The position numbers and the translations under genes were made by a program. A DNA stretch of 61,310 nt, counting the filler, from Cystobasidiomycetes sp. EMM_F5 (taxonomy: Eukaryota), in the NCBI GenBank assembly GCA_051047955.1. It is 3 parts of 3 records of this genome, joined end to end, with 100 filler letters (N's around TTAATTAATTAA, not from the genome) between each part and the next. Parts side by side here need not be neighbours in the genome. Positions count along the whole stretch, not along the records: positions 1 to 26,811 come from JBPGPT010000070.1; positions 26,912 to 51,027 come from JBPGPT010000071.1; 1 more part is not named here. One strand, 5' to 3'. This document shows positions 1 to 51,027 of the stretch, one piece after another (the stretch's first letter is position 1; every line of letters starts with the position of its first letter). The notes under the pieces were generated by a model. That model searched no databases. It was given only the letters and a program-made list of their open reading frames with translations, and was not told where the DNA came from.

Positions 1-2
1 GC

Positions 3-93
3 CAATGAGGAGGTCACAGACACGCTGTTGTGCGAACGCAAGTGTGTATACTGCAATCAGCTAGCCGCTAGCATGTATGGACTTGATCTGGTT
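3..93 (+). repeat. Inverted repeat X, copy 1 (left end of contig 1)
   Basis: Reverse complement of 26719-26809: 91 bp with 3 transition mismatches (positions 17, 38, 84) by manual alignment. Confidence 0.95.
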
Positions 94-1805
94 GCTGTCT
101 TTCCCCACTTTTCCCTGTCCCATAATCTAGTATGATCAACTCTGCCTGCCTCACAGCTGTACAGCGTGTTATTAGCATCTGATATCGTCGGGATGAAATC
201 GCGATTCCCCTCATCATCTTTTTATGGTGACCTCTAATCCAAATTTGCAGGCACAGCGCAAATACTATCGATCAAAATGCGCATCAGATGGCTGTGCGTG
301 ACGTCTGTAGTACCCGTAAAAGCCAAAAATGCCCGCTGTACGTGGACTCTTTCGTCGTGCCACATGGACTAGGTACTGCCGCGGCTTCTCTCATGATGGG
401 TGCACGAATTCGGCCACCTCGTTGGTGCAGCAAGCCACTGTTGCGACCGGTCCCGCCTAAGGTTGGCTCGCTGACAGCTTTTTACGATAAGCATGCCAAT
501 TTGGCAATCGCCTGCGCTCGATATCTTCGAGGTATGAGACGGTATTTCTTGACGTTTTGGGAATGAAGTAGAAGGATGCTGCACCGCCAGCTGCAAGGGG
601 TGTTAAGAGGCGTACTGGGAGGATGCGATGTCTCGAAATTATTGAGCCCAGCAGGGTAGCGATGCCGACGCTACAGGGGGAGGGGGAGGGGAAGGGAGCG
701 AGATGAGAGAATGAGCTATTGAGTGTTGAGAGAATAGAGGGACGAATGTAGCGACGACTTACTATAGAAGGCCGGGATTGAGGTCTTCACCCGGTGCGTG
801 AAGCGATCTCAAGTGGCCTGTCGTACCGCACCAGGGTATGTGCGAGCGGCAATCGACATTAGGTCATTATCCCGTGCGCTCTGATGCGGACAGACACCCA
901 CGCTCAAACCCGCGTTCTGCCCCTATCAGATCCGAGGAGGCAATCCTGAAATGTGTGCGCAGCTGCGCAGCCAAAGCTTCGGACGTCTTGCGCGCGGACG
1001 ATACTTGGTGCTGCAAGGCGGAGGGAGGTAGAGGGACGAGGACGACCGGCGAGGAAGGGTGGTCGTAGATGGACAGATGCGCTGGCGGCGTCTACGGATG
1101 ACACAGGAGAGACAGCATCAGCTCGGACGCGCCAGGAGAGAGGACCGCATAGCCGTCTTTGCGCAAAGCAGCGCGAGCTGTGAAGGGCCCACGCAGACAT
1201 GTTGGATTGACGTACAGCGTCGGGGGAAGGCATGATGGGTATGCAGAGAGGCGGCGGCGACACGGCGCACTACTAGGCTGCAGGATACAGAAGAGTACGG
1301 CGTCCGCAGGCGTAGTCACTGCAGTCCAGGACCAAGTCGGCACAAAGCTTTGGTCGAGTGGAAACAAAAGAAAAGAAAGGGTTCTCCGATGAGCGCAGGC
1401 CACTTTTAAATAATGTTGGTCGGCTCCTCGTCAACGCTGCGCCATACAAACCTGACAAGCTGCCTGCTCTCTCCAGCTGCTGCACGGCACCCACTGCTAC
1501 GCTCGTAAGGACCTCGCTCGGACACTCGTCTCTTGTGTCCCGTAGCGCGCTCTGGACGTTTGGTGTTGAAACATTCAAAGTACCACACACCCACGGCCAG
1601 CATTGACAGCGAATTGGAGTGTTTTGCACGCGTAAAGCTCCCCACAAGGCAAGCCAACTGCCTGTAGCCGCATCGACCAGTCATCGCCGCGACGAAACCG
1701 CCTGACGCGCGAAACTGTGCCCATCTTACTTGGGCCTAGGCGGAACGGCAGACAACCTCTGCTCTGCTCACGGCGCAGATAGAGTATCAATAGTCTGCGC
1801 GATCC

Positions 1806-4730
1806 ATGGCTTCCTCTTGGAACGGTGCGGCCCTGCAACCCTCGCGACCGGCGCCCCCTGTACCGGGATCTACGGGTGCTGCATGCCACAATGCTCCAGC
1901 TAGCACAGCTCCTACAGGCTCACTCCGTCCGCTGCTCACGACTGCATCATCCAGCTCATCGGCTCGATCAGCTCAGAGTGATGGACTGTCGCGGTCCATG
2001 CACGGGCTGAATCTAAACCCCGGCTCGTTCAATTCCGCTGATTACGCCCAAACGCGCACCTCTCAACCGCAGCCGCAGTACAGCACAAGCCAAGCACGAG
2101 GAGGCCCTTCGACACCAGCGCCAAATCGCCATGGCTTCATTCGCGATGGCCCGGTACAAACCAAGGAGGATGGTATACGCAGCATGTTTTTCGTAAAGCG
2201 CTATGCTATTCTCAGGGACACGGCGCTAACGTTTCACAAAAGTAAAGAGGTGGGTCTATTCGTGCGATCTTACATCTCCCAGTATCCGACTTATCCGTTT
2301 ATCCGCATCCGCCTTAACCCTCAATACGAACTCTCGATACGAACTTTTAACACGGCGCATTCGCATTACACAGGCTGCTGGAACCGCCTCTGCGATAATA
2401 TTTCTGCGGGACATAGACGCGATTTCGCGTACAGACCTGAAACCATACTGCATCGAAATATCTTGTAGAGACAAGACAATGTATATGGTGTGTAGAACTC
2501 ATGGCTACTCCTCAATTTCCCGCAGATAATGATGATGCGCTTCCTCCCCTTTTCGTCTCAATAGTCAGTAAAGAGCGATGACGAGCTCTATGGCTGGATG
2601 GACGACATATACAATAGCTCACCCCTCGGTGCCTCGGTGCCGACAAACTTCGTGCATCAAGTGCACGTTGGCTTCGATCCCGTCTCAGGAGCATTTACAG
2701 GCCTTCCAGAACAATGGACTCGCTTGCTCACTTCGAGCGCCATAACCAAGGAAGACTATGCGCGAAATCCGCAAGCAGTGCTGGATGTATTGGAATTTTA
2801 TACCGAGAATCAACGGCGGGGTCAGGACGAATGGGGCGTACCTGGCTCTGGCGGAGTGTCCGACTACATTGGCAGCATGGCCAGCGTCAAGCCGAGCTCC
2901 CAGGCGTATCCGCCACCTCCCCCCGCAACACGTTTTGTCACAGGAACCGGCTATTCCGGTGCGGATTCGTCAAGATCACAATCGCCCTTTGCGCCGGTAG
3001 TGGATTCTACCTCTTCTACCTCATTCTCCGCATCCGTCAATCCAACTCGAGACGCTATCTCCTTCACCACTTCCGCGGACGGCTTGTCCAGCAAATTACG
3101 TAACGGAGCGACGCCCACGGCTACCAACGAGAAGTATCGCGCGCCCGTTCCTCCGACAATCGAAGATGCGCACTTGCAAACTGCGAAATTAGCGCAGCCG
3201 ACCTTCGTAAACCCTAGTAGTCGAGTAAAGGGGCATGAAAATGCAGAGCGGAGGGACGTCGATGCGGGACCAAAGTCACATCATACCAAGACTCCTACAG
3301 ACTCCATAGCTATACGCGACGTCCGAAACCCGTCCGGCGATGCACAATCAGCATTTGATGGCGCCGGACCGAATACATTAACATCAGCAATACCGGTCTT
3401 GTCGCAGCCGGCTGCCCGTCAGATTGCCGATTCGCAGATGAGTCGCGCTAAACTCAACAGTGCAGTTGCCCCCTCCAGAAGTCCACCGACCGCGCCGTCT
3501 TTGCACCCAGCGGTCAAACCGTTGCAAGCCGCGAAGCCGCCGGCGAGTGCAGCGAGTGGCACCGGTACTGCTGGTCAAGAAGACAAGCGCATTTCGTCAA
3601 TGACAGAAGCTCAAATCACGGCGAAGTTACGTAGTGTCGTTTCGGCTCGAGATCCGTCCAAATTATACGCTAAAATCAAGAAGGTCGGTCAAGGCGCGTC
3701 TGGTTCAGTCTATGTTGCCAAGGATCTGGAATCCGGCACCAAGATTGCGATCAAGCAGATGGATCTTTCCGCGCAGCCCCGGAAAGAGTTGATCGTCAAC
3801 GAAATCCTGGTTATGAAGGATTCGAAGCATCCAAACATTGTCAACTTCCTAGACTCTTTCCTGGTGAAGAATAACGAGTTGTGGGTAGTGATGGAGTATA
3901 TGGAGGGTGGAGCTCTCACGGATATCATCGACAACAATACCTTGGAAGAAAGCCAAATTTCCTGCATATGCTTTGAGGTGTGTCTGCTCAGCCTGTCTGA
4001 CAAACTGTTCTGCTGATGAAGGTTGATCTGATTTATGAGTAGACGTGCAAGGGCTTGCAGCATCTGCACAATCAACACATCATTCACCGGGATATTAAGT
4101 CCGACAACGTTCTGCTGGACGCGTTCGGACACGTGAAAATAAGTGAGAGCTCGCGAGGTTAGCATTAGCAGATATTGCATTAACACCGTGTCTCGGTAGC
4201 CGATTTTGGATTCTGCGCAAAGCTCACAGATCAGAAATCCAAGCGAGCAACCATGGTAGGCACGCCTTACTGGATGGCTCCAGAGGTTGTCAAGCAGAAG
4301 GAATACGGCGCTAAAGTGGATATTTGGTCTTTGGGTTCGTGGTATCTTTGCGCATACTGCTGGTGAGAGACTGAGTGCGACCATCAGGCATAATGGCAAT
4401 TGAGATGATTGAGAACGAGCCTCCCTATTTGGATGAAGAACCGCTGAAGGCACTCTACCTGATTGCGACAAATGGCACACCAACACTCAAAAGGCCAGAC
4501 AAGCTTAGTCAAGAATTAAAGAATTTTTTGGCCGTATGCCTGTGTGTGGATGTGAAAAGTCGAGCAACAGCGGACGAACTGGTGCGAGTAAGCCGGCTGA
4601 TACGGCAATTGCTTCGATGCACGGCAGACTGACATCAAGCGCGCACCTGAAACAGCACGAGTTTCTCAGCAAGGGGTGTGAGCTATCCGGATTAGCAGCC
4701 TTAATGAAGTTCAAAAATGGTAGTCGGTAA
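1806..4730 (+). CDS. STE20: PAK kinase with PH-CRIB-kinase layout (STE20/CLA4 type)
   Basis: Spliced ORFs give a PH domain ([19 protein letters not shown]...[11 protein letters not shown]), CRIB ([25 protein letters not shown]) and kinase motifs ([28 protein letters not shown]). GT-AG introns, e.g. 2250-2373 and 2488-2564. Confidence 0.93.
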
Positions 4731-5206: not shown

Positions 5207-6089
<883 letters not shown>

Positions 6090-6772: not shown

Positions 6773-8099
6773 TCAATTCTCGGAGGAGACCAGATGGGCG
6801 TCCCTGTCGTTGATCGAAGTATCCTCGTATTTTTTGTTTAGGCGCGATCTTGCCAAACGTCTCCATACATCTGCACAGTCGTCAATCAGTATGTCCGTTC
6901 AGTATCAGTGCCAAGACAAAGATCAAACCGCCTACATTCGCCGGCGGATATGGGCGGAAACTTGACTTCTTCGCCTTCTTTCAAGCACGTCGGCGCAGTC
7001 TCGATCATAGCATCGTAAGCTTCGCAAGCAGTAATCAGATCTCTGTTCAAGCAGCGTCCATTCTGCCAGGACCTACAGAATCCAAAAAATACAGGTACCG
7101 AATAGCGTTCCATTCCAGTCTTGTTGATGACTCGATGAACAGTCGACAAGAAGCGGTTGTTTGAGCAACGACAGAGCATGTCCCCAAGATTAACAACCAA
7201 GGTGCCAGGAATGGGAGGTGCTTCGATCCATTGACCTGACTTGTTCAGAACTTGTAGGCACGACAAATCTGAGCCCTGCGCCAGAAACGTGAGGCACTCG
7301 ATGTCTGCGTGTGCTCCGATGCCCAGGGACGCGGCGTCCGGTGGCTGAGCTGGATAATGCAGCAGACGGCCAAGACATCCAGGCGTTCTGACAAAGTCGT
7401 CGAAATACGTCTCCGGAAGGTTTAGGGCTAAGGCTAGGATGCCAATGAGTTTCCTGCCAAGCATGAGGACTTGCCCATAGTAGTGGAAAATGGTACTCTT
7501 CAGTTCGGGTTGAGCAGCCTGCGGTAAACACCATTTGAGACATCACGCGTGCGATACGCACTCGCTGCTACAAGGCACGTACAGGCCAGACGTTATCGCC
7601 TGTCATGGGGTTCTCTGGCAATTCTGGAGGACTGGACGATCCCGTGTATAGAGGGTCCGCCTGAATTTCATAGCCCCAGTTGAAAGCTTCTTTGCAATCC
7701 CCAGGTTTGTTCAACTCTTCGCCTTGTTTGGACACAGGCTCAAAACCACGGAAAATTGGGGACTTTAAATGGTGGATCGACATCTTCTCTCGATCCGGGA
7801 GGTTGAAGAAGTGTCGTGCTTGTGAGAAGAGTTCCTCCAATCCGCTGATGCCATGATCCCTGTTTCTCTGTCAGACCTGGAGTATCAGTAGACGCGGTAG
7901 TTATAACCTACTTGATGTAGAAGAACCCAATAGTCTGCGCTACATGGCGAATCTCGTCGACGAGTGTCTTTTTGGTTGCAGCATCGTCTTCGAACAAAGC
8001 TTTGACAGAGATAACTGGTATCGTATCGAAGGACGATTTGACCGCTGTATCCGACACAATCTTGCGCGACACACCGAGATAGTCCACAACTTCATCCAT
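6773..8099 (-). CDS. 2-oxoglutarate/Fe(II) dioxygenase (IPNS/DIOX_N family), copy A
   Basis: IPVIS...GFFYIK..HGI N-terminus, RLLHYP, iron triad HAD...STVHRV and RYS 2OG-binding motif. Confidence 0.9.
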
Positions 8100-8392
8100 G
8101 GCGCCGCTTCAGTCTTGGAGTAACAATTCTCATATGGTTGCTTTTCTGCGATGGCAGAGCCGGCCGGCAGCGGCCACCAGATCGGCACCTGGTCCGATAA
8201 GAAAATTGTCGTGCGCAAATATACAAAATTTTTATCAGTAGTGCAAAACAACAGTACTTGACATCGTCCGCACTGCGCGCTTGAGACCATAGCTGCGATT
8301 TCTCCGCCTATGCTAAAAATAAGTAGCTATAGGTACGTACAGACTCAGACGCTCAATACAGCGACAAATCATGCCTTCTGAATCAGCCGAGA

Positions 8393-9749
8393 CTATTTGT
8401 CAAGGACATAAGTGAAATCGTATCTTCGACGCATGAATTGTTCCACGGTTTCATAATCGCCAGTGTCGCTGGCACCAATGGGCTTGACTTTGGCATCCAA
8501 GCTGCCTTCCAAGAAAAAGGGTATGCTGTATCTGCTTATTCATCACGTCTTCAGGTGCGCACACGATAGCATGACTATGCACCAACAAACCTCTCTTGTT
8601 CAGTAGCGTTGATGACCCGATGCAGGCTAGACTTATACTTGTAAGGTCCGCTGATGTCAGACAATAGATCTGCTACGTTGACCACGTAGGAGTATGCTGG
8701 AGCTTCGACTGCATACCATCTGTTCTTGTAAGAGACTTGAAGGCCTGGGACGGACGGAGGCACAGCCAGCCAAGTTCTGTCAACGAGATGGCACACTTTA
8801 CTGTCTGATCTGAATCCTCGACAGTGGTTTAAGCAACACTCACGTTAGTCCGAAATCTGAATGCGGTGCTACCCCAATCTGGACGGATTCGGCTCTAGCT
8901 TCAGGTTGAGGTGGGTATCTCAGCAAACGGATGGCTGCTATAGGTTCGTCCAGCATGTCGTCAAAGTAATTCTCGGCCTGGTCGAGAGAAATTGCCACGA
9001 CCTTCATGAACAGCTTTGACCTGGCGTCGAGCGCTTCCCAATACCTGAAATACATTACATTGGAATGTTGATCATCAGCTAGCTGGCACTTGCTTGCGAT
9101 AGAACCTACTTTTGGCAAGTTGCGCGAAGACCAGGAACTTGACTATCATCGGGCAACAAGTTTGGACCATGTGCAAATCGCCCATAGTATCTGCAGTGTT
9201 TTCCATGTTTGTCATCGCCGATCATCCATCCCTCCTGTGGAGATACTGCGCTGTTCAGGGGAAGAAATCATACACGGACTTGTTGCAACTTGAAACCCGC
9301 CTTCAGATCCGGGACGCCGTGGTGAGCCTCATACTCTTTTGCATCGTGACCGCCTGCGACTTGTCCGTACAAAGACTGCTTGCCCATAACTGTCCGACAT
9401 GCACATGTCAGCACACACCTGGATGTCCCGCAATCTTCCTTTTTTTCTCCTACCCTCATAGCCTTTGCCTGTGAACAAGTCTCGCTGCAAAAGAGCGACC
9501 CGTTGGTTTGTAACCGCGACATCCTTACCACAAACTCACCTCGAATGCTGCTTTCTCTTCTTGCGGGAGCGCAAATAGTTTTTTCGATGCTTCAAAGAGC
9601 TCGTCTATTAAACTTGACGGGATGCCATGATCCACAAACGCCATAAAACCCGTCGTCTGTGCCGCTAACCGGAATTCCTGAGCGAGTCGTTTTCGTCCAT
9701 CTGCTGTGTCAAGGTTGGCCAAAGACAAGATGGGAACGACAGAAGTCAT
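8393..9749 (-). CDS. 2-oxoglutarate/Fe(II) dioxygenase (IPNS/DIOX_N family), copy B
   Basis: VPILSL...GFMAFVDHGI, PDLKE, RLLRYPPQ, HSD...SSLHRV and RYSIPFF across several exons. Confidence 0.88.
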
Positions 9750-9844
9750 GCTGTGCGTGACAGGATGGCTCTGAGTGGTGGTGGTCACTGCGGCAGGACT
9801 GCTCAGAGGCGTTACGCCTGCAATCGCCCGCAAAGGCGGAATCG

Positions 9845-9916
9845 CTTATCGCGTTCCTGAAAGCGCCGCTCTATCCGCCGATGCCGATCTTGTGATATTA
9901 CCTTATCGCTGATAAT
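9845..9916. promoter_or_regulatory. Cluster of GATA elements in the divergent promoter of dioxygenase B and the permease
   Basis: CTTATC twice, GATAAT and TGATAT within about 70 bp of a 245-bp divergent intergenic region; matches the AreA/Gat1-type HGATAR consensus. Confidence 0.45.
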
Positions 9917-9994
9917 CCCGGGACGCTTCTTTTCTTTCTCTCCTCATCTTACCATCTTGTCTCGCACTTAATTAGCCATTTCTGGCAGCGCATT

Positions 9995-12239
9995 ATGTTA
10001 AACAGAGGAGTAGTGGCAGAGCTGCCCAGGGCACCAACTCCAGATGACCTGGAAAAGGCTGCTGATCATGACACTCGAGTCACTATCCGCCAAACACACG
10101 ACTTTTTCGGCAGCAAACATGAACGCGCTGAGGCTGAAGCGATCATGCACGCTGAAGATCATGGTGAGTCCCCCGACGAGCTGACGGAAAGGGTCCAATG
10201 ATCTGATAAATCTCACAGTCCCCCGTCAAAAGGGCGTTTTCGCTCCCTTATGGCGATTTGTAGTCAAGTCTGCCGATTGGGGCGTCGAGGTTCGTGGCAT
10301 TGAGCGCGTTTCAGAGGACAACCGCACCCACACTCGCATTATCGACAATTTCACAATGTGGCTTTCCGTTAATGTAAGGAAGTATGGCCTTCTCCTTCAC
10401 ATGCCATGGCTGACATATCTCTCTTAGATGGCTATCACAATCTTTGGATTGGGTGTCCTTGGCCCGGCCGTGTTTGGCCTCGGACTCAAAGAGGCTTTGG
10501 CTACCATCATCGTGTTCAATGTAGGTAAGGTGTACGCTGCTTTTGACTCTCCTCTAAGGTCAAGCCTCGTTTGTGGGTGTAGTGCACGACCCACTTTTTT
10601 GTTGCCCTCTTTGCCGTTTGGGGCTGCAAGACTGGCCTTCGGACCTTGCCTCTGGCCCGCTTCAGCTTTGGCTATTGGGTTTCCTACATTCCCGTCCTAC
10701 TCAGTACGCCCTCCAGCCGCGAATCGCAACATGCGATACTGAGAGAAGTAATCAGATCTCATTGGTACTGTTGGATGGGCCACCGTCAATTGCATTGGGG
10801 GTGTTTCCGTGCTTCAGAACGTATCCACATCGAACCGAATACCCACGGCGCCAGTGAGTCGTACACTCTCGAATCTGCCAGTCTCTTACTTTTCTCGCCC
10901 CAGGCTGTAATCATAGTCGCTGGACTGACACTCATCCCGTGCTTCTTTGGATATAAATTTATCCATAAATGTACGCTGCTGGTCTTGCTCTGAGACACTG
11001 GGCCCTGGAGTGCTGATAGTGCTGTTGATAGATGATCGATACTCTGGGATCCTTCCAGGTGTCATTTTCATCATTCTTCTTGCCTTGGGAATTAGAAACT
11101 TCGAAGTAACTCCGTATGCTGGTTCGGGAGCGGTCGAGGCAGCCAAGGTCTTGTCTTTCGGTGCCACACTTGTCGGATCCTGCTTTGGTTGGGCGTCTTT
11201 CGTGAGCGTGCCTCCCCAGGCCCTCGTTAGCAATTCCAATTGGCTGACCTTGTCTGGGTCGAAGGGTGCGGATTGGTCAGTCAATCAGCCAGTGAATACA
11301 CCAGGCTGGAAGATCTTCCTTTATGTCTGGTGCGGGCAAAACGCCGGTCATCTGTTCACAGAAGGTCTGGGCGCTGCGTACGGTGCTGCTCTCGCTTCGC
11401 ACCCAGACTGGGCGAACGCCTACGCGACAGGAGATATCGTACGCAGCTCTCTTTGACCGCACTTAATATATCTAAATTTCCAAGGTTTAGGGCGGACTAC
11501 TTCGCATTGCTTTTTCACCTGCTAAAGGCTTCGGCCAGTTCCTCCAAGTCTTGTTGTGCCTCCAGATCGTGGCTGGAAACACTCCTAACATTTGTAAGTG
11601 CCTGTTGACTGACTGGTGCATCTGCATGAGCTTTGCTTATGTGTGATTGGTTGACAGACTCCTTCTGCATGACATTCCAAACGTTGGGTCCATGGTTCCA
11701 AGCCATTCCTAGAGCCGTCATTGTCATTATAATGACAATTCTGTACGCTGTTCTAGCGGGAGTTGGCGCTGACACGTAAGTGCTATCTAGTATGTGTTTG
11801 GGCCTCGTGACTAAGTTTTCTTCAGCTTTTCGAGCACGCTAACGAATTTGATCATTTTCCTCGGCTACTGGTTGTCAAATTTTTGCATCATCCTGTGCTT
11901 GGAGCACTTTGTCATTCGAAAGGGCAAGTGGAGCAATTACGAGTTGGACGAGTTTCAAAATTGGCGCAGACTGCCTCTAGGTGCAGCTGCGTTTGGAGCT
12001 GTCTGCATGGGCTGGGTTGGGGCTACAATGGGTATGAGTTCATCATTCTTTGTTGGCCCAATTGCGAAGAAGATCGGTGGATCAGGCGACATTGTGGGTT
12101 GCTTCGTCACTCTAGTGGCTCTGACCACACTATTTCTGATGTCATTAATCTCTATAAGGGCTGGGAAATGGCTATGCTGTTGGGCGGTCTCACCTATCTC
12201 CCACTACGTATCATCGAGAAGAAGTATTGGGGATATTGA
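9995..12239 (+). CDS. Purine-cytosine permease (NCS1, Fcy2/FcyB-like)
   Basis: WGVEVRGIERV, FTMWLSVN, GVLGPAVFGLGL, ADWSVNQP, FLGYWLS...LEHFVIR, LPLGAAAFGA; multi-exon and hydrophobic. Confidence 0.9.
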
Positions 12240-13380
12240 TATGGAAGTACATGGGCGTTGTTATTATGTTCTACGTTTGGACATCCGACCAGATTTCAGT
12301 GACTTTAACGTATAGAGAGCATGGTTTGGGATGTACAGCAATAAGGAAGCTATCCACCAACTTGGTGACATCAGCCAAAAAGGATCTGCGAATTGGATGC
12401 TTTGAAAAACGCAAAAAAGGCGTGTGCACACCTTGCTTGATGTGGTGACGGTCGAAAGCTTGCAATGCTTAGCGGAAGATCATCCTTAGCAGAGTTGTCG
12501 TCGTGATCCTGAAGGCAAACGATGTCCTCATTCCCGGAAGTACGAATCATATCAGCATTCGCTCGCATCGTAAGAGACTTCCATCGTCAAGACTCGGAGC
12601 CATTCCCAAAATTTCAGTGACTCGGATGGACAGGCTTGTGCGCCACTTCAGCGCAACAAAGATGCGCATACGCACTACCGAACCGCCTCTCCGCTTTGGA
12701 TATGAGCAGGGAGTGAGCCAGCGAGGAAGGTGCCGGCACAAGTTGCAATACCGCACATTAGAATGCCTGACTGTGAGATCTACTTCACATCTTGTTTATG
12801 AGTATGATCCAGCCTCAAAGACGTAGAACGCGTAAAACGGCGCGCACAGGGCTGAAGTCATAAGCAGGCTGGACGGTAAAGTACTAGACGAGGTGTCTTC
12901 TACGTCGTGACTGCCAGAGTCGTCGCCTTGATGCCGTGTGGTCTGTGTCATCAGCTTTGACGTTACTTTGCATCAGAAAGCGGCGAAACTGTCTGCAATA
13001 CAGTCGCAACCTCAGATCTCTCGGAATGCACTAGACGAGCGTGCGTTATTCTTATATGCAGGCTGGACTTGCGCCTGACATCCCTTGTGACAGTCGGGTA
13101 TCCAGCATCGGTCTGAATCAACGTCAGCTATACTATGCATGTCGAAACATCTGCGGTGACAGCAGCCACAAGTAGCGGTTGAGACGTTCTCGTGTGACGA
13201 TGAGAGAATATGCAGAAATTCACCGTTGTACCAGATTCAGAGGGGAGAGTCCGAGTTGGTTTTCGATCTCGGACTAAGCACAGGGAAGGCTGGGGGGAAA
13301 ATTCGACTTCACGCCCCTCGTCTTTCCCTCGAGGCTCCTCAAGAGGCGCGCACCGTCAACGTTGACACACTGCCACCACC

Positions 13381-14236
13381 ATGCCCGTCGCCGGTGTTCC
13401 TCGCAAGCACAGCAAAACCGGAAAGGTGCCACGCCGGCCATTCGAGGCGACACGTCTCGATGCCGAGCTCAAACTCGCTGGCGAATAGTGAGCATAGAAT
13501 GACTGGCGAACGATGGCGCCTGTTATGGCGATGCGGGAACAATGTCACTGACCCATCCTGCTTTTTCCTACAACAGCGGTCTTAGATCCAAATCCGAGAT
13601 CTGGTATGCTTCGCAGTTCCATCAACGGAACGTATAAAAGCACAAGCAGTATGCTGACATGCCGCTACCGTGACGCATCTGCATCATTATCAGGCGCATC
13701 GGCTTAACGCTTTCGAAGATTCGTCGTGCGGCCCGAGAACTGCTCAAACTTGAGGACAAGGATCCCAAGCGACTGTTTGAAGGGAATGCACTCATTCGAC
13801 GACTTGTTCGTATTGGAGTACTCGACGAGACTCGCATGCGCCTCGACTATGTTCTGGCTCTCAAGATTGAAGATTTTTTGGAGCGTCGCTTGCAAACGCA
13901 GGTCTTCAAGTCTGGTCTTGCCAAATCCATTCATCACGCCCGTGTACTCATCCGACAACGACATATTCGAGTAGGGAAGCAAATTGTAAACGTACCATCC
14001 TTCGTAGTGCGGTTGGATTCGCAAAAGGTCAGTCTAGCCACGCGCTGTGGTAGCATTGTCGTTCCCTCGCAGACAGAAATCACTAACTCCTCCTCATCTA
14101 CGATCCTGCATTTCAGCACATTGATTTTGCATTGACTTCGCCGTACGGTGGGGGTCGCGCCGGGCGAGTCAAGAGGAAGAAGGCGAGAGCGGCAGCAGGA
14201 GGTAACGCGGAAGCAGCCGAAGATGACGAAGAGTAG
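13381..14236 (+). CDS. RPS9: 40S ribosomal protein S9 (uS4)
   Basis: [22 protein letters not shown]...[11 protein letters not shown]...[30 protein letters not shown]...[14 protein letters not shown]. Confidence 0.96.
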
Positions 14237-14549
14237 ATGAACACCGAAGACATTTCTGCCTAGTCCAGTTGTTAAATGGTGGAGTCTGTCGGCACTGGCT
14301 AGCCCACTGCATTGGACATTCGCATGGTCATAATGTCACTAAGCTGCACCGGAGTGGGATTTGTTAGATTCAACCGGATGCAATCGGAAAGTTGCCTCAT
14401 GATTCAGGCCATTTTGCCAGCGTACTTCCTTACCGCTACACTCAGGTTGCGTCTCGTCTGAGTAGAAACGATGGGCAAAACCTATGATGACACTGGCACT
14501 ACTAAGTTGGCAATGGTATGCAGACACGAACCTTTGTGTCTGCCAATGT

Positions 14550-15789
14550 TCAGCTCTCATTCACGATGCCTTCCGTAACCTTCAAGTCTTCCAGTTTGCC
14601 GGTAGCGATGTCGTACACCCAGCCTACGCGTGATTATCAGCATTCAAAGTTACCCCTGTCAACGGACAAATCATCCGCACCGTGCACAGCGATGCTCCTG
14701 CCACTCCTCCAAGCTGTTTGCAGTACAGAAGAGCTAGCGACGTTGCTGACCTGAGCACACACATTTTGGGTTACTAGAGTGCGTAGTGCGCTGGCATCGC
14801 TCGGGGCGTCGACCTCGCCCGCCGGCGACGATTGCGTTGCGCGAATGTTGGACACTGCAAGTGCACGGATGGGGCTCAGCCACTGCTGAATAGCCTGACT
14901 CCCTTCATCAACTGTGTCGACAGCCGACGCAGCCGTGCGATCCTTGGCGCTTGCAAGAGCAGCTTGCACTCCTCCGCATCCATGATGACCGCAGACGACA
15001 ACGTGTGAAACGCCTAGGACATTGACAGCGTATGCCAAGGCTGCCAGTGCTGAAGTATCCTTATTGTGGAACGTGTTTGCAATGTTACGCTGCGAATAAG
15101 CAGCATCAGTCATTCGTTGCCTACAGCCCGGAATGAGAGTCATTTGTACGTGGACAAACAGATCACCTGGCATAGCACCTGTAATGAGCTATTCATACCG
15201 AGATTCACAATCATTAGCTAGACCTTGGTAATGAATAGCTTGACCCACTTCAGCAGGAACACGGCTATCGCAGCAACCGAGCCAGAATATTGAGGGCTTC
15301 TGCCCTGATTTTGGGATGCAAACGCACTCAGCCTTCTATATGCATTATGCCGCAAGACAATGTCACACCTTTGGCAGTTGTAAGAAATAGCTGGGGGTCC
15401 GTATCCCTCACCCATTTGGCGCTAAGGATAGCATGACGGGCTCGAGGTCAGAATCAGCAGTTTCTTGGCTCTACATCTACCCTACTTTGTCTCGAGCAGA
15501 TGCTCCGGAGTCGGAGCATGATGTCCAGGCTGCCACATTGGTCCCAAAGTTTTGGTAGAGTATGTTCGCGACCGGATGATTGACCAAGGAAACGCGGTCC
15601 GCCCGCTTGCGTGAGGCAGCTGTGCTGCCGTAGAAAGAGATCGAGCAGCCAGTCGAGGTTGTTCAATCCAGATCGAAGGTAGCCGTGCTTCAAGGTTGAG
15701 GAAAACCGGCAAGCGGCGAAGCTGGTCGAGCCAAATGTGAGAATAATGAGCAAACGATCTCAGTGGCAGTTTCAAACTTGGCTGACCAT
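14550..15789 (-). CDS. Beta-carbonic anhydrase with probable mitochondrial presequence
   Basis: GQKPSIFWLGCCDSRVPAE, PGDLFVHRNIAN, VVCGHHGCGG, HGWVYDIATGKL. First coding exon is ATG only (intron 15722-15786), giving MLRRLPVF... Confidence 0.9.
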
Positions 15790-16022
15790 GCAAATTAGCG
15801 AGTGTGTTGTTCCGATGGAAGGAGGACGTAGTACGGCAATTCAAGGATGGAAAGCTAGGGAGACGGGGCAAAAGCTCTTACGATAAATTTGGTGTCTGCA
15901 AACAGGCATTAGCAGCGATTAACAGGCGATTTATATGCAATTGACAATTCCAACGGTGAGAAGATTCGCTCTTGCAATTTCATGATATTATTCGGAGTAT
16001 TGCGCAGAAAAGTAACAATTGT

Positions 16023-18434
16023 CTAACAACCCGTTCCTGGACAGCCAGTAGCTACACCCTTCTCTGGTCCCGCTCCGGCGATAGTGAGAATGGCTTGCAT
16101 GACTCCGCCCAAACCCTCTCCCGTGATCATGCCTGCAGCGAATACGAAAGCCAACTTCTCATAAGAAACTGGCGAGCGACGCTTCCAATACCAGCCAGCG
16201 AGCGCAGCAACCGCCATGGCTGCACCATAGTACGTTTGGTAGATGACAAATGCAAGACCTGCGGCACTCGGATTGGGTACATAACCCTTGTACCTCGCAG
16301 GAATGACATATACTCGCGCCAGAATGATGAGGACAGAGATGATGGTGAAGACGATGGCGAGGATTCCAGAAGTTGTTGGGACTGGTAAGCCTTCGGTTGC
16401 TGTTATGGCGATAGCCACAGATCGCCACGCAGACGCGCTGGGAACGCCATACGGGCAGCTCTTAGGACTGATCTGTATAATGCAAGGTGAAGCAGTCGTA
16501 AACAAAACAAAGAAGGCCACAGAGAGGAAGCACGAGCAGAAGGCGCCAATGAGCTGTGCAAAGTACTGAGTCACTGGCTTGGCTCCAATAAGATGACCAG
16601 TCTTCAGATCCCCAGTCAAATCTGTAGCCTGAGCAGCCGCACCTGCGGAAATCATTCCGCACAAAAGGTTGATTCTGATGGCGTGTAGGTTTCTGCCGGT
16701 AACAGGATCGACACTATCGAGATACTTGCCGTGGGTTGCGCCTCCGACGACGAGCTGTGTAGCCTTAGCGCAAGTCGAGACCGGATTGACGTCCGTGACA
16801 CCGGCGCTTAATACTCCGATGAAGCTGAACAGGAAAGCCAGGATGATGGCCAATATTGACAGACCCACGTTGACTCCGAAGGATACACCTTGCACGATGC
16901 AAGTGAGGGCAACGCCGACAACTGTTACGGGAACCCATATCCACCACCGAACTTGGTCCTTCAACGGCGCTGGATCTACCACCGGCACATCGAGCAGATT
17001 CTTGATCGGCTCCTTGCCTCTCCGTACGCGGATGAAGTTGCGGGCTTTCGTAAAAATCGGTGCCATGCCAGCGGAAATAGTTCTCCATTCAACAGCCAAT
17101 TCAACGAAAGCTGAGACCAACATCACGAGTACACCGATCCAGAGTAAATTATAACGCGGCGATGTTGCTGTAGACGACGGATCCTTTGGTGACATGCTAT
17201 AGTAACTGCGGTAGTAAGGAATGGTGTCGCCATCGGTGGCGTCTTCTGAAATGTCAGAGCCAGTCGCACGGCCGGTAGCGACAAGCGCAGGTCCAATGAT
17301 TCCCCAAGCCAGCACGAAACCGCCGTAAAAGGACAACGAGGCATTGACACCCGATAGAATGCCAGCGCCGAAGAAGGCTGGTGTCCACTCCCACCACCAG
17401 CCCCAATTATCGAGAAGCTGCGCCTTTGGAGCACCCCAGACGGCTATCCAGTTGAAGACACTAAATAGTGTAACAGTTCAGCGACCACAAAATAGTAAGC
17501 GGATATGCAGCACGTACTGCCAGTCGTACAAAACACCTGGAACGTAAGTGGAAGCGATTTTTTGCACGAAACAAACCACAAAAGTCCACAACAGCCAACG
17601 TCCCTTTTGCTTAGCATCAGCAGCTCCGGTTTTGGGTGCATGAAGAGAACGAATAGCGTAGGCGGTCGCCGACGGTGTTGGAAAAACCAGGCGCTGACGC
17701 AAGATGTAGAACTGCAAGAATGTCAGCCCATGTCAGACGTAAAGTGCCTAGCATGCGATCTCACAGCACGGAGCGGGACAGCAAAAGACATGCCGTAGAA
17801 GGCGACGGACAGCATATACCCGATCAGCTTTCCGAAATCATCTTGAGGCTTTGCGCTGAGTAGTCCGAGCTGGTACATTGCGGGAAATCCAGAGACAAAC
17901 AGAATACCCAGCCCTCCAGCAGCGGTAGCTGCGCTTTGGCAAGTGACGTTCTCACGAGGACCGAAGTAGCCCGATCCAAACCAAGCGGGCATAACATTTG
18001 GAATGATGCGCGAGAGGGCTTTTAGAATAATAAAGCCTCCGATTCCGCCCAGAAGCTGAGGACCGAAAGTGAAGCCTGTCTTTAACCCCAGATACAAGTT
18101 TGAAGCCTGTACGACGGCCCCAAGAGCGCATCCTCTAATGAAGACCGAAAATCATTAGAATGAATACCAGCATATGCGTCACCTGTACGTACACGAGAAC
18201 GGCACGGAAAGTGAACTGCGCTGCCTCCTCTGGAAGGCTTGGATCGAGCCTCAGCGGGTCACCGGGAATGTAGTGCTCCTCGACATCTTGGACGTCTAAT
18301 GTGGCTTGATGGTAATCTCCAGTCTCTTTCTTATGATCTCCCAGGTCTTTCTCGACTTCATACTCTGGCGTGACAGGCTGAACCAGATCGTGGGACAGGG
18401 GCTGCGCTGTGACAGCCATTCGTTCGGCGTCCAT
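16023..18434 (-). CDS. OPT/YSL-family oligopeptide transporter
   Basis: QFTFRAVL, ASNLYLGLKTGFTFGPQLLG, FGPRENVTCQSAATAAG, LVFPTPSATA, DLTGDLKTGHL, AGMITGEGLGGV. Confidence 0.93.
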
Positions 18435-19596
18435 AATTGGCGATTTGCTTAGGGCAAACACAGCAAGAACGGTGATGGAAGCAGAGAAGAAACGGGAAAG
18501 GGAGCTAGAGTTAGTGGTGAATTGCCTATCGGAGCAAATAAGAGATTAGAGCCATTCCGCCAGAATCTGTATGGATACCGCGAGGGCGCAGACGAGAGTA
18601 GCTGTAGCACACGGTGCGCAACATGATAGTTGTGTGCTAGCGGGTCTGCTGATCCTACTGAATTGGGCATGCGATAGCAGAAAACGCATGTCTTTTTGCC
18701 ACCGCGTCAAAGGTGTCACATGCGACGGCGACAATCGGCATGCGGTAAAGTGAGCAAGGTCATCAAATGCACACATTTGCGGAGAAAACAGTAGTAGTAG
18801 TAGTGTGCACCGTAGGATATATTATTAGCAATATAAGTTAGCGGCAAGGCAGCGGAACAGCATGAATTTCTTATTATGCTGTAGATACTGAAGTGTTATC
18901 GCTAGTTTGTGGCGTACCCATATTATCAGGCTCTGATAATTGCTATCGATAAATAAAGCTGTAACCCACGGTAGCCGCATTGACGGCTTGGGCTAGTGAT
19001 ACTGTAGTGAATTTGTAATCCGGCTCACGGTTCAAAGACGCTCGCTTGTCGATAATGCACCGATATGTGATACTACCTGAATGACCGGCGTACGACCTAG
19101 TCGCCTTTGCTAGCCTTCATAGGTGGTGCATTACGACTGTACTGTGTAGCGTCTCCAGTGAAGTATCGCTTGATTAGCTGAAGTTAGTACACGACGGGTA
19201 TTAGTGCGCCATACTTTGGCAGACAGACTTCGAGTGCTGTGCAAGGGCGAACCCTCTAACAGGGCTGGTTGTCGCAGATCTGCGTATATATGTAATGGTA
19301 TTTACGAGCCGCATTGTACGGTGCACACTTGTATCAGACTGAATGAATACCTTTCCGCAAGCAGGGCTGTTGCTTTAATCAGCGGGTCTCGATCCCGATT
19401 GCCTATCGTATACTCGCATCTGCTAAATGAAAGCGTCGTGTCATTGGTGACCATTGGGGAAGCAGGCCTGCTGTTGGTATTTGCAGCATCTGCAATGGCC
19501 TAGGCAGTCATAGTATCAAGTAGACGGATTTGACCCGCCATACACATATCACTGCTCGCTCCGGTACGGCTAAGTCGTGGCCTTTTGCAACACCTT

Positions 19597-20669
19597 CTAA
19601 TCAACTTTCTTTGCCGATGCGGAACCCGTCGCGGTACTGTACTTTGCTGACAAGGCATCGTAATCGCTTTGCAATTGCTTGAGTTTTACGCCATCTGCTG
19701 AAGAGTGGGCACCATCTTTGGAGGTGATCTTGTTCTTTTCAATGATGGCAAGCTGTTCCTGACATTTAATGAGATCGAGGATTAGCGTGTACGTGCGGTT
19801 GAGACTGAGGGCCAGAAAGAGCGTGAACTGCGCAAAAAGGTAGTTCAAAGAGCAATTAGCAATCCATTCTGACACCAACATTGTTTACGTACGCCGGTAA
19901 GATACGCATTGCGCTCGGACAGAAACTTGCGGCTTCTCCAATCGGTCTCGGCGCGGAGATCGCCTCTTACGCCTTTCTCTTTCGCAGCAAGACCTTCGTT
20001 GTGTACCCGGAGCATATGTTGCAGCGAGTCTGACAAGTCGACATCCATGTCAACGTGATCACGGCATGTCTGATACGCATTTTGCTCTTACCGATAAACA
20101 ATACTGTGACAAAGCTGTGAAATTGTCAGTTGCTTCATTTCCAGTACAATGCGTGAGAAGCCTACATGAACAGGATCTGAATAGTTTGAGGATCCAACAT
20201 AGCGTTGAGGCAGAAGATCGGCATATCGCCATTAGCTGAAAAGCCATATAATTGTCATAACGGTGGACAGCTGTACCTTCAGGCCGTAAATGCCTCTCGA
20301 CACCATAGGACTGTTTGAAAGGAAGACAAAGAGAGCCTTCCGCCATTTGAACGGCATCGGTACCTACCCAGTTGAACGCATGCTAAATCAGACGATTTGA
20401 GCGAGTGCAGCGCACGACCTACAACCAAGACTATGAAGAGCGCAAGCTGATACACCCGTGAAAGTGCTACTGGTCAGCGGCTGTCGAATATCGCAATTCT
20501 ACGTCATGGTAACTTACCTCGAAAGTGACTAGGAATATGTAGATACGGAAGTTCACATAGTCGCAAGAGTCAGTACAGCACAGTGAGTTTCAGCGACGGC
20601 AGAGGCCCGATGTGCAGCTGCCAGCAACGACGTACGCAATGCGAAGACTAGGCGAAGGTAGAGCGACAT
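19597..20669 (-). CDS. BAP31: B-cell receptor-associated protein 31 homologue (BAP31/Yet3)
   Basis: Spliced MSLYLRLVFALLTFELALFIVLVVPMPFKWRK..., RKFLSERNAYLTGFTLFL, coiled-coil tail ending in the dilysine ER-retrieval motif KKVD. Confidence 0.88.
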
Positions 20670-20988
20670 GATTGAGGCGAAAGCGATATGCCGGCAACGG
20701 TACGGTGCTGAGGCTGACTGAGCGTGATTGTCGACAGGTCACCGAGAAAGGCAGAACAGCTGGGTATTTTCGCGACTTCGCCGTGGGCTGATTTGACTCA
20801 GGCGCAAGTTGGAGGGTAGTCGAAAATGACGTTTGACGCAAATGGTCAAGACGAGAACAACCGGACGACGGGACACAAGCACGTCCGCATACATATCTGT
20901 AACTTGTGAGCATGCACGGACAGCAACTACTGGCTGACTTCTCTGTCTTGAGGTACCGCTAACCAGCATCCATCTGATAGCCGTGCAA

Positions 20989-21965
20989 ATGGCTGTGCGT
21001 GACACGAAGAAATTTCGCAAACCAAAGCGGGGCGGAGGCAAGAGGTGAGTTGGAGGATGCGAAAGATTCTGCTCGTGCTCATGAGAACAAAGCTTAGAAA
21101 CGCACCGCTTGATTTGCTGAATTTGTGACCTCTGAATTGTTGACCGTTCTGCGCAGGTTCACCGATGCACGGACATTGAGCGCCCAGAACCAAGCATCGG
21201 ACGACATTACCGATAGCGAGAGTAAAAGCGACAGCAGTAACGATGACCATGAAGAGAGCTCAAAAGGCAGCACTGCAGACGATAGCGTGGACGCGAATTT
21301 AGATGCGAAACCGCCCGTCACACAAAACAGCGGTGAAGCATTCAACTTAGGCCCACGTTACAATGAGATGCTGACCGACAACATTACAGACGTCGTAGGA
21401 GCATACGCAAGCCTTAGTCTCAACGCGAGTGCGGTGCGCCCGAGTGAACTGCTCCAACAGCCGACCAGCCAACGCGGAATGGTAGTCAATGAATCTAGTT
21501 TAGGTCCTGGGCGAAGTCCATCAAGCAAGCAATCCCGTCACCGCACAGTGGTGTCACATGACTCCGACGAGAAGGTGATATCTGACCGTGCTGCCGTGAA
21601 AGCCGGTCCGTCTGACAAGCAGTCAGAGGATGATCTCAGCATGGGTCTGCTACCCAAAAGGTCAGTCGGCTCTGGTACGACCAATCGCAAGGAGAGGTTA
21701 GTGGTGTATCTCTCCTCAATGTGGCGCGATCATTACCTCATTCTTGAATCCTCTGGAAAGGGAAGCAAAAGCGAGAGCTGATGCGCACGAACGATACCTG
21801 ACTGCAACTCGTGCTGGTAAGACCGATCAGGCTAAATCGGACCTCGCGCGCTTGGCGGAGATCCGTCACCAAAGGGCCCTAGCGGCAGAACGCAGGGAAG
21901 CAGAGCGAAATCAGGCAGAACTTGCCCAAAGAACAGCTTTGACAGGCAGCAGTCGGAAGCAGTGA
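20989..21965 (+). CDS. 28 kDa heat/acid-stable phosphoprotein (PP28/PDAP1-like)
   Basis: N-terminal KPKRGGGKR|F, acidic linker and C-terminal NRKER|EAKARADAHERY...AGKTDQAKSDLARLAEIR PP28 motif. Confidence 0.82.
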
Positions 21966-22140
21966 CGTTGACCTACAGAAGCACATGAGCAGCGCAGGAA
22001 CTACGCGCAGACCCTCGCGACTATGCGATCGCTGAGCGGGCTTGTTTGTAAGCGTTCCGCGCAGGCAATTCTCACCGCAGTACACTGGTACAAATGTATA
22101 GTCTTTTTCGAGCTACAACTTGGGGACGGCCGCAGACAAG

Positions 22141-23529: not shown

Positions 23530-24798
23530 CTGGCAATGACGGAAGATTTGATGTCGATGTGCTGGGACGATTTTGGAGAATTACCAAACTATGGTACAAC
23601 ACTGCGACTGCTGTGTGTATACGTCTCGATAGGCGATATGAATGGGGAAATCACTTATTGTTGATCGAGCTTTCAAAAGCCAACAGAGACGGTCTTTTGT
23701 CAGCATGTATGCTCAATCATAGGCGGATGGGAGCTTTACAGTAGTTACTACACCACAGTGCTGCAACTGAAGTGGTGATACGTCATAAATCACGAGTGTC
23801 GAAGAAGGGAGGCAGGGTGCACCGTGACTTGCAAGAAGCGGCGTCCCCAATGAAGAAAGAGTCAGACCATCGATATCACCTTGGACACCCCGACGCATCC
23901 AAGGAGGCTCAACTGAGTTCATACTGATTTACTAGATACAGTAATTTGTCCAACAAAATCGACTTGCTTCAATTTCCTAGCCCATCGGGATCAAATACAT
24001 ATACATAGACGTGGTCGATTGTTTTCCGTTATGACCAATGCATGATTCTTGCAGTTTGGCTAAAGGCGAAGGAGCAGGTTCTTGTGACTAGTACGCTAAT
24101 AAATATATTCTTCTAATACCGTCTAGACGACTTGTTTTCGCCCATGCAAATCCTTAATTCCACACAGAAAGGGCATTAGTGTTGTACTGTATGATACAGG
24201 GTATGTAGTTAAACCATGACATTGTAGCTCAGCTCATCCAGCCATATGCTTTCCAAGTATGACAGTATGTCAATATTGAAAGGCGGATGCTGCACGTAAA
24301 TCACTCGTTGAGACAGAATCTTGCTAGTGAATGAACTTGCCATATGATTCTCGAATACTAATAGCTCGCGCACGAAAAGAAAAGAAAGGAGCACGGTTAC
24401 TAGTAGGGCATTGATACTAGATCAGGCGTGGCACGCGCGCTTAGGATGGACCATGTGCATAGCTGACGTCAAGCCTGTCAAAGACTCCTTATCTTAGTCC
24501 CACTGGTCAAGGACCATCCACATTAAGATGGCCACGACTAGGTAATGCTCCGGAAGAAGACCCCAGCAATTCATTAGCGCCTCGTTCAGATCGACTAACG
24601 AACCGCGGTTTCTTGAAAGGCCTTATAAGGACTTGCATGAGAAGATTCAGGATTCCCACTTTTGACGAAAGCTTCTACATCCCGATAAGATGAGATCTTT
24701 TACAACTGCCCGATCGACTCGGTGCTGTGGAAGTAACAGTTCAACTGCAGTATCACACACAGATTCTTCAATGCCTTAATGCGGGCAATGCATGTGCC

Positions 24799-26809: not shown

Positions 26810-26811
26810 TT

Positions 26812-46611: not shown

Positions 46612-47632
46612 CTAAACATACTGCAAGACCTCTACTTCATGCTTGCTCATTATCACTGAATACGGCTGATCGTCTAGAGACTCGTCCTTCCTGACCTCAT
46701 TCAGCGTATCCTCTAGCTTTGCACGGAAATATGACTTGAGGTACGGTCTTTCTGTGCCAGTATGTGTACCTGCGAGTAGCAGTCAGTGACAGCCTTTTAC
46801 GCCAATAAGACAAGGAACATACACAGCACAACGTGCGTGCCGGACGCCACGGTGGCCAGTATATCGTGATGCTGCATCTCGCCAGTCCACCACAAGTCGG
46901 CTTTCGACCCTTTCAGGAAGGATCCACCTGAGCCCGCACAGACACCGATTGTCTGAACATACTCTATTCCAGATCTAGACTCTGCTACCATCAGTGTCTA
47001 CGCAATATGATGTCAGTCAACGTAGCATGCACAATGCAAGCCGACTCATCTGTTGACATTCCAAGGTGCGCCTTGATCCGCTTGACGATATCTCCTAGAG
47101 CAGCCGCTTCTTGCAGCTGCCATACACGCGGTCGGTCCGAGTGACTTTGCCATTGCCCATCACCTAATCCATGGGCAAGCCAGTCTTGAATGCCTCCGGT
47201 CGCCGCGTCTAGCGAAGTGTGGGGCGAATAGACCGATATTCCACGAGCAGCACATCTGATACCGAGCGTTATTATGGCCGGGATCTGTCACAAATTTGCG
47301 ATACTTACTGCAGCAGACAAGATTGTAATGGATTGTCGTGTGTCAATGCTTTCAAGCCTGAGAATATCGGAGGGTGGTATACGACGATGCTCCCGACGTC
47401 CTCGTTTGCATCTTCTACGATTTGCTTTGTAAGATCTGTCGCTAGAAGTACCGTCCTTCTAGGTTTAGCATTTGGCAGTAAGAATGGCTCGACCAGCAAG
47501 CCGACTAGGTGAAGCATATTCAGTCATCAGATCATCCCGAAACCATTGGCTCTCACCATTGTCCCAGTTCTCTGCAAGGTTGAGCGGCGCTATCTTCTGA
47601 AAGGCTAGCTTTACGGCTTTCGTCAGTGACAT
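46612..47632 (-). CDS. NIF3: NIF3 / YbgI-family (GTP cyclohydrolase 1 type 2-like) protein
   Basis: APLNLAENWDN|VGLLVE, IVVYHPPIF, YSPHTSLDA, GVCAGSGGS, TGEMQHH, HTGTERPYL. Confidence 0.92.
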
Positions 47633-49028: not shown

Positions 49029-50510
49029 ATGACCTTTGGCGACTATGGTCTGCTGCGCCAACAATATGAGCAGTTCTCGAGCTGGTATCTTCATCATCTC
49101 ACGTATCGCGTTGTAGCGGGTCCCCGTTCCTTCCTCTGTGCCATACCCGTCATCATCGTACCTCTGGCTCTTTTGACACCATCTGAAACACTGCCGCTGT
49201 GGACACTCCGATGGCTTATCTTTCCCCTCGTAGCGGGTATCCAGGTCAATACGAACATAGCCACAAAACCACTGTATTGAATCGGCTAATGTTGTCGAAA
49301 AACACAGGTTCACGCCTGGTGGACCTATGACTGTTTCGATGTCATTAGTTCCGACTTCTTACTAGCAGCGTACATGTTCTTGGGATGGTTTGACGTGCGG
49401 AGAGATTTCAAGCGGATACTGAGGACCTTCCGGAATGGCGAATTGAGCGGAGAGGAAGAAAAGCCCAAGGTGGAGGCATACCCTGACTCCCGCATTCAAC
49501 GTTTAATGTGGGTTGCATCGGCGTACACTTCTATCCAACTAAACGGCTGGCTAGTCGGCAATAAATCGCACGATGCGAAGCAGCTGGAGAATACTCGAAA
49601 CATAGTCACCTTCAAAGCCCTGTTCCGCCATGTAGCCTTCAAGTGCGCATTGTACTATTGCATGCTCGAGGCAATATACCACTTTGGCCTCGTCACGTCT
49701 AATCCAAACTTTGTGAAGACAGCCAATGCCTCATTTCACGAACCGTCGGTCCTCGGAAACGCCTTATCTTTGGGCAGCCTATTGGCGTACCTATATGCAG
49801 CACTCGCGCTGTATACGTACTATGTACCGATGATGCTCGCCTTGATTGCATCTTACTTAGTGCCATCACTTCGCTCGCACCAGACGCTCTCACCCTTGAT
49901 CATTGCGCCTTATGAAGGTCCGTTCACCGCAATATGGAGGCCTACATCCAGGCGTCGCACATGGGGCCTTCGCGCATTTTGGGGGTCAGTATGGCATCAA
50001 AACATGCGCTACATCACGGCTGTCCCAGGACTAGCTGTTTCGTCGGCTCTAAGCTTGCGAAAGGGAGGATTCGCGCATTATGCGGTAGTTGCTTGTTCTG
50101 CATTCTTTTTCAGCGGCATCATTCACATGGGTATGATACCGCCGTTTCCCCTCTATACAAATGTTCCCGCCATGCAACTCAGACTTTTGCTGGCGACGTT
50201 CTTCTGGCTACAACCGATAGGCGTCCTTCTAGAGACAGTCGTGGATGGCTTCTTTCGGAAAATGGTACCGGCGGAAAATAACTCTCACGATAGTAGCAGG
50301 GCAGTAAGTAAGAACATCGACAACCAGGCTCCGCATCTCGTCGTGCAGCTTCTCATTGTAGTATGGACTTGCGCATTCATGTCATACGTGACCTGGACGA
50401 CAGGCCGGATTGTGGGGAGGGAGATGGGATGGTGGAATCTACACGCCTCCCCAGTCTCAATAGTATCAATGCTCAGAGGCGAAGCGGACTGGTGCAGGAA
50501 ATGGCTATGA
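49029..50510 (+). CDS. Membrane-bound O-acyltransferase (MBOAT_2 / wax-synthase-like)
   Basis: Multi-TM protein with GLRAFWGSVWHQNMR, AFFFSGIIH and FFWLQPIGVLLE motifs. Confidence 0.82.
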
Positions 50511-50617
50511 ATGATGACAGGTATTGACACCACAATAAGACAACAAGAGGATCGCAACAATGACAAGGCTAGGGCGCTGCTTATCGGGCCATCCTACCGA
50601 TACACTTCGTTCTCCAT

Positions 50618-51027
50618 CTCCTCAGAGCTATGCTCCCACACTGCTGCCGGCATCATGCGAGGCTGGCTGTCTTTGTGTGCGTATATCACTCTGGCTGCTT
50701 CACGTCCGTTCAAATGCGCTCAAGCCACAGTACTACGTATCGCAGTCAGCAAGCCCTGAATTGAAGGTACTTAGTTGTCTACTGCCTGTATTGGCGTTTA
50801 GCAAGCCGTCCCTCGTGATTCGTGCGAAGACGACCCGGCCACAACAACTGAGCGGCAAACAAGCAGACGCACGAGAACATGCTATCTTCCTGTTTAGGTA
50901 GCCGACACCACTTCCAGAAACGCCATGGAACAATGACTGTCACTATCTGCGCTCTCTATATAGAGACGGCTAGGCATGTCACAACGGCTCAGTAAGCTGC
51001 CAATCCGACCAACTGTTGGACCTTCAG
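50618..51027 (-). repeat. Inverted repeat Y, copy 2 (right end of contig 2), promoter-like
   Basis: Reverse complement of 26912-27322. Contains TATATA (50957-50962) and AACAATG (50929-50935) within about 100 bp of the gap. Confidence 0.95.

Follow-up and report, generated by a model that had tools for sequence, protein, structure and literature searches.

Inverted repeats at the contig ends of a P/R mating-type locus in Cystobasidiomycetes sp. EMM_F5, and the possible collapse of multi-copy pheromone genes

Introduction

In the MAT A1 loci of S. salmonicolor and R. toruloides, the pheromone genes lie inside conserved inverted repeats that intra-allelic gene conversion probably preserves; STE3.A1 is usually found between RibL18ae and RibL6, and RHA2 between STE20 and KAP95 (extracts of PMC3236058). 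The conserved genes of the Rhodotorula pheromone/receptor (P/R) locus include STE3, RHA, STE20 and RIBL18AE, rearranged modules of the locus are flanked by multiple inverted RHA copies, and 'APO', an abbreviation left unexpanded in the extracts, is named as a flank of the locus (extracts of bioRxiv 10.1101/2025.09.11.675505). In Cryptococcus, several identical and divergently oriented copies of the MF pheromone gene act as inverted repeats and mediate inversions, the inversion breakpoints coincide with MF copies, and STE3 and STE20 are core genes of the locus (extracts of PMC12510652). As far as these extracts reach, the three sources place multi-copy pheromone genes in inverted repeats at P/R loci, in support of a preliminary description of the DNA studied here. 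We analyzed a 61,310-nucleotide stretch of Cystobasidiomycetes sp. EMM_F5 (assembly GCA_051047955.1), hereafter the window, in which two contigs, one of them with STE3 and STE20, end in inverted repeats that may be the flanks of collapsed pheromone genes.

The locus resembles the Sporidiobolales MAT A1 loci (S. salmonicolor, R. toruloides and Sporobolomyces sp. IAM 13481, with RHA1-3) in having STE3 beside RibL18ae and STE20 in the same region. A further likeness may lie in the 'APO' flank of the bioRxiv extracts and the ApoO-domain gene at the left end of contig 1, the equivalence of the two being a guess on our part. The window differs from those loci in that no RHA gene is present in the assembled sequence, that RibL6, KAP95 and LSM7 found no match among its 270 open reading frames (ORFs) tested against Pfam, that its GC content is ~51% and that its STE3 is nearest to a receptor of Mixia osmundae. 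That receptor (E5Q_02558) is the closest named one, yet it is only 43-47% identical over the largest exon, and our literature search found no account of the P/R locus of M. osmundae. Searched with STE3 at near length, the protein collection gave only the window's own protein and the one from M. osmundae, and at longer lengths it gave no match. Based on the low STE3 identity and the GC content, the organism probably belongs to a poorly sampled lineage of Pucciniomycotina yeasts and not to Rhodotorula or Sporidiobolus. Cryptococcus differs in belonging to the Agaricomycotina and in that its MF copies are assembled and encode CAAX peptides (extracts of PMC12510652), whereas the flanks alone can be read in the window.

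Results

Two pairs of inverted repeats at contig ends

The window is made up of three contigs (1-26811, 26912-51027 and 51128-61310). The linkers between them are artificial and 100 nt long, so the 'gaps' have no sized length. As the preliminary description had claimed, inverted copies of one repeat (X) stand at both ends of contig 1 and inverted copies of another (Y) at both ends of contig 2 (Table 1). Positions 3-93 and the reverse complement of 26719-26809 are identical at 88/91 positions (96.7%; blastn E 6.2e-39), with mismatches at positions 17, 38 and 84, and the homology of the X pair ends abruptly after position 93. The Y pair, 26913-27322 against the reverse complement of 50618-51026, is 78.5% identical over 414 alignment columns (blastn E 7.9e-92). 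The identity of the Y copies falls with distance from the contig end: it was 0.94, 0.92, 0.92, 0.86 and 0.80 in successive 50-column windows, ~0.8 by columns 100-150, between 0.62 and 0.82 from there up to ~400 and ~0.35, the random level, past column ~425, the homology being gone near 415 nt.

Each of the repeat-bearing contig ends (4/4) stops on a mismatch to its partner. The outermost two bases of X are GC in one copy and AA in the other, and the outermost base of Y is T in one copy and C in the other, as had been described for both pairs. If an identical core was collapsed, contigs should stop at its edge on the first mismatch, and the terminal bases support such an origin of the breaks. 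We compared the six contig-end pieces with the whole window by blastn at word size 7. The search returned no X or Y copy in the 61-kb window beyond the four ends, and no similarity between X and Y in either orientation. The arms of both pairs are imperfect copies, indicating that they are genuinely paralogous rather than a fold-back artefact or an assembler palindrome.

The protein collection that we searched places the STE3 and STE20 of the window on a contig of 26705 nt. When 31-mers unique within the window were marked, the run 54-26758 of contig 1 was exactly 26705 nt, which is contig 1 shortened on either side by 53 nt, the place of a 45-nt identical stretch in X. A k=31-type assembly thus breaks at this identical stretch. 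The 26705-nt assembly may share the same reads and is not independent proof of the biology. For contig 2, the same 31-mer rule predicts a contig of 24086 nt.

X is traversed by an open frame of 44 codons and Y by one of 43. The changes between copies are mostly non-synonymous in both, and none of the 11 flank translations reached the Pfam threshold; X and Y therefore look non-coding, and the frames that leave the gaps were rejected as coding sequence given the mostly non-synonymous differences. The X frame leaving the gap (1-135, and the reverse complement of 26677-26811) is open for 44 codons in both copies and has a shared TGA stop at 133-135, 40 nt past the detectable homology. Since the copy differences are mostly non-synonymous, we regard the common stop as a coincidence (roughly 1 in 20). 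The zone of Y with 62-74% identity contains an island of ~46 nt with 41 identical bases (~27187-27236 and 50705-50755) around TCAGGGCTTGCTGAC...GTGGCTTGAG, at a distance of roughly 280-320 nt from the contig end. This island may be a conserved cis-element in the upstream region of the repeat unit proposed below.

Neither a 30-nt piece of Y nor a 41-nt piece of X had an exact match in the metagenome or viral contig collections (0 matches in each pattern scan). Three soil sequencing runs of one study (runs X1-X3, labels unrelated to repeat X) were aligned to 6812-26811 and yielded one exact 165-nt piece plus short pieces of low identity, with nothing at the contig end.

Table 1. Coordinates of the repeat copies, linkers and principal genes in the window
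Feature	Coordinates	Strand	Evidence and remarks
X_L, inverted X copy at left end of contig 1	1-93	+	88/91 identical to partner
ApoO (MICOS) domain gene	460-786	-	PF09769, E 6.8e-14; 3' end towards X_L
STE20/PAK kinase, at least 2 exons	2565-4629	+	PF00786, E 1.9e-23; PF00069, E 3.6e-20
STE3 pheromone receptor	22360-23527	-	PF02076; ATG at 23527, several introns
Ribosomal protein L18ae/L20 (RibL18ae)	24802-25325	-	PF01775, E 2.2e-15; adjoins STE3
Unnamed gene, two open frames	25962-26647	+	Best regional codon scores (weak); 3' end towards X_R
X_R, inverted X copy at right end of contig 1	26719-26811	-	blastn and alignment
Artificial linker 1 (44 N, TTAATTAATTAA, 44 N)	26812-26911	none	
Y_L, inverted Y copy at left end of contig 2	26912-27325	-	94% identity next to contig end
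MBOAT_2 family gene	49290-50510	+	PF13813, E 1.3e-10; stop ~100 nt before Y_R
Y_R, inverted Y copy at right end of contig 2	50612-51027	+	TATATAG ~65 nt from end
Artificial linker 2 (44 N, TTAATTAATTAA, 44 N)	51028-51127	none	

Gene content of the locus

Of the 306 ORFs in the window (at least 75 aa, free of N), 270 were tested against Pfam; the 36 left out are those overlapping larger Pfam-positive frames. The order of genes in contig 1 is ApoO-domain gene, STE20, ubiquitin-L40, two 2OG-Fe(II) oxygenases, RPS9, beta-carbonic anhydrase, OPT transporter, Bap31, PP28, STE3 and RibL18ae. Judged by STE20, STE3, RibL18ae and the ApoO-domain gene, contig 1 is the P/R mating-type locus, and the Pfam matches to the first three bear out the preliminary description on this point. 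The homologues of the kinase are PAK/Ste20/Cla4 proteins, its best named match is from Cystobasidium minutum and the C-terminal part of its kinase domain lies at 4375-4629. The PF02076 matches of STE3 are at 22596-23267 (E 1.1e-36) and, in the first exon, at 23254-23580 (E 2.4e-12). By eye, the readable exons give an intact-looking STE3 gene.

The best-scoring frames beside Y_L are on the minus strand and end ~95 nt from Y_L (weak codon score). The ApoO-domain gene and the unnamed frames at the other end of contig 1 both converge on X, the latter by a weak codon score; in this genome, codon-usage scores are too weak for a firm assignment of gene strands. Insofar as the orientation of the neighboring genes is readable, it fits Y as the 5' side and X as the 3' side of a repeat unit. 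The Pfam content of contig 2 comprises PX, HIG1, an AGC kinase, a photolyase, a second kinase, NIF3, an RNase PH subunit and MBOAT.

Within the segment between STE20 and STE3, the minus strand carries 2OG-Fe(II) oxygenase genes in tandem at 6886-7870 and 8578-9845, each with DIOX_N and 2OG-FeII_Oxy. The exact piece from the soil runs is a 165-nt contig of run X1, which is labelled metatranscriptomic; it matches 26103-26245, inside the unnamed plus-strand frame 25962-26432 beside X_R. That soil sample seems to contain this organism or a very close relative.

Search for pheromone precursor, transposon and RNA genes

A six-frame scan of the assembled sequence gave 151 frames ending in C-x-x-x-stop, among which there was no credible CAAX precursor, in agreement with the earlier statement that the assembled sequence lacks one. 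Tandem Repeats Finder returned 11 short rows and no RHA-type peptide-coding array. A lipopeptide precursor gene near the receptor was thus not encountered in the assembled sequence by either search.

Four of the C-x-x-x-stop frames were considered individually. The frame at 77-130 (plus strand, 17 aa ending in CPII) was rejected since it is not kept in X_R. The frame at 1575-1919 (minus strand, ending in CVVL) was also rejected, since it overlaps a plus-strand frame, upstream of STE20, that scores better. So was the frame at 47305-47523 (minus strand, ending in CLLQ), which adjoins a NIF3-family exon match at 46994-47287 on the same strand and which we take, from reading its sequence, to be a NIF3 exon. 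The frame at 23991-24059 (minus strand, 22 codons ending in CICI) shares the strand of STE3 and lies ~460 nt upstream of its start, directly after a good splice-acceptor-like tract. It has no ATG, its sole plausible upstream exon is out of frame and it is probably noise.

Matches to transposase, reverse transcriptase and integrase families were found in 0/270 tested ORFs and in 0/11 flank translations. The window had 0 Rfam matches at gathering thresholds and 0 tRNAs by ARAGORN, so that the assembled flanks contain no detected rRNA, tRNA or snRNA.

Discussion

We propose a single small gene cassette whose diverging flanks form the ends of contigs 1 and 2. It would consist of an upstream region of ~415 nt (Y), a core missing from the assembly and a downstream region of ~93 nt (X). 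At least three copies of the cassette, in alternating orientation, would surround the P/R mating-type locus of a Pucciniomycotina yeast. Gene conversion between the copies would keep the cores identical or nearly so, and the assembler would have collapsed these cores and broken each flank at the first difference. X_L would be the 3' flank of a cassette reading into contig 1, and Y_L the 5' flank or promoter side of a cassette reading towards the gap. Pheromone precursor genes are the most likely occupants of the cores. We consider the evidence for a shared pheromone cassette with three or more copies in alternation to be evenly balanced, and hold with the same middling confidence that the cores are pheromone genes and that X and Y join through them.

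The geometry of the repeats is consistent with the proposal. If X and Y flank one core and the copies alternate in orientation, a segment with X at both ends is followed by a segment with Y at both ends, which is what we observed. Copies in opposite orientation with homologous flanks appear to be present as far as the flanks go, that is, for the X pair and for the Y pair. The decay of Y identity away from the gap (0.94, then ~0.7, then random) is the pattern expected beside a conversion tract centered on the core. The four observed ends taken alone would close into a circle, so a linear chromosome needs at least a third copy.

Several results weigh against the shared cassette. There is no core base in the assembled sequence, and the join of X to Y through a core is one that we infer. 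The outer flanks of the further copy that a linear chromosome needs are not among the contig ends of the window, and the ends of contig 3 resemble neither X nor Y (blastn, word size 7), the preliminary description having already remarked that this contig does not start with X. The contig sizes fall from 26811 through 24116 to at least 10183 nt, like those of a size-sorted contig file, and the order of contigs within the window may be file order only; if the file was sorted by size, neighbors in the window say nothing on chromosomal adjacency. The Pfam matches of contig 2 include none of the P/R-associated genes listed for Rhodotorula in the extracts of bioRxiv 10.1101/2025.09.11.675505. Y had been described as looking like a promoter; the TATATAG of Y_R is not kept and reads TACATAG in Y_L, and this claim was not borne out. 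The precursor scan could also miss a precursor in contig 1 that has introns or is atypical. The preliminary interpretation of a collapsed multi-copy element thus stands in part: real paralogous repeats, breaks at mismatches, a P/R locus with no recognised pheromone gene and published precedent speak for it, while the pheromone nature of the core, the sharing of one core by X and Y and the adjacency of the contigs are suppositions.

The same observations could arise from two unrelated pairs of inverted repeats, a core A with X and a core B with Y, on contigs that are not neighbors; core A may even then be a pheromone gene. Blastn within the window found nothing that links X to Y, contig 2 has no Pfam match to a gene known as P/R-linked, the pattern is not carried on by contig 3, and the descending contig sizes would suit this explanation as well. 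It would, however, require a coincidence for side-by-side contigs both to have inverted-repeat ends that break at a mismatch, the odds of which are not computable from the window, whereas the alternating three-copy layout predicts an X/X segment followed by a Y/Y segment. On balance, we regard unrelated pairs as unlikely, though they deserve some weight. A comparable doubt attaches to the nature of the core, which might be a transposable element, a solo long terminal repeat or another non-pheromone repeat in a local duplication, the pheromone genes being elsewhere or lost. Transposable elements occur in nearly all Rhodotorula P/R loci and accumulate near RHA genes (extracts of bioRxiv 10.1101/2025.09.11.675505), so that a transposon could equally cause the breaks, and this too counts against the pheromone cassette. 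Such elements commonly break short-read assemblies, and the core sequence, not being in the assembly, provides no evidence on the matter. The flanks tell a different story: independent insertions would lack homologous flanks, whereas the flanks of each pair are homologous, and element copies of the same age would be uniform, whereas identity here is highest at the core and declines away from it. Y fades out instead of having a sharp outer edge, X is not an inverted copy of Y, and the screen for transposon families was negative, a result that concerns the assembled sequence only. A non-pheromone core of this kind is in our opinion improbable, if still worth considering.

Two further explanations appear far less probable. 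Since all four repeat arms sit at contig ends, they might be terminal inverted repeats made by the assembler through a fold-back or chimeric contig. Unlike fold-back artefacts, the arms are imperfect (3/91 mismatches in X; ~21% in Y, with indels), and the second assembly, that of the protein collection, has its break at the place expected from the 45-nt identical stretch of X, which makes an artefact very unlikely. Inverted repeats between two unique segments can flip, as in the yeast 2-micron plasmid or the plastid genome. A closed circle of ~51 kb plus two cores, with the joins Y_R-core-X_L and X_R-core-Y_L and two unique segments, would account for the four ends without remainder and with the fewest copies (two), leaving no unseen flank. 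Against a circle stand nuclear housekeeping genes of an ordinary kind, with introns (ubiquitin-L40, RPS9, RibL18ae, exosome RNase PH and photolyase), and no replication or partition gene was seen among the Pfam matches; we consider it extremely unlikely. There is likewise the slightest of chances that the mating locus resides on a flip-flopping ~51-kb circle or, in a milder form, that two ~25-kb segments invert among three identical cassettes to give several isomers per strain.

The shared pheromone cassette would be an application of a published architecture and not a new kind of system; the locus is a probable further case of the inverted-repeat pheromone architecture already described. The locus needs long reads, and the repeats have practical value in showing genome annotators where to look for the missing pheromone genes. 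Should the cores be pheromone genes, a poorly sampled lineage of Pucciniomycotina would have the STE20...STE3-RibL18ae module in common with the Sporidiobolales and would also bracket segments of the locus with inverted, homogenised pheromone genes. If true, this architecture, a suspected driver of inversions and of suppressed recombination at mating loci, would date further back in basidiomycete evolution.

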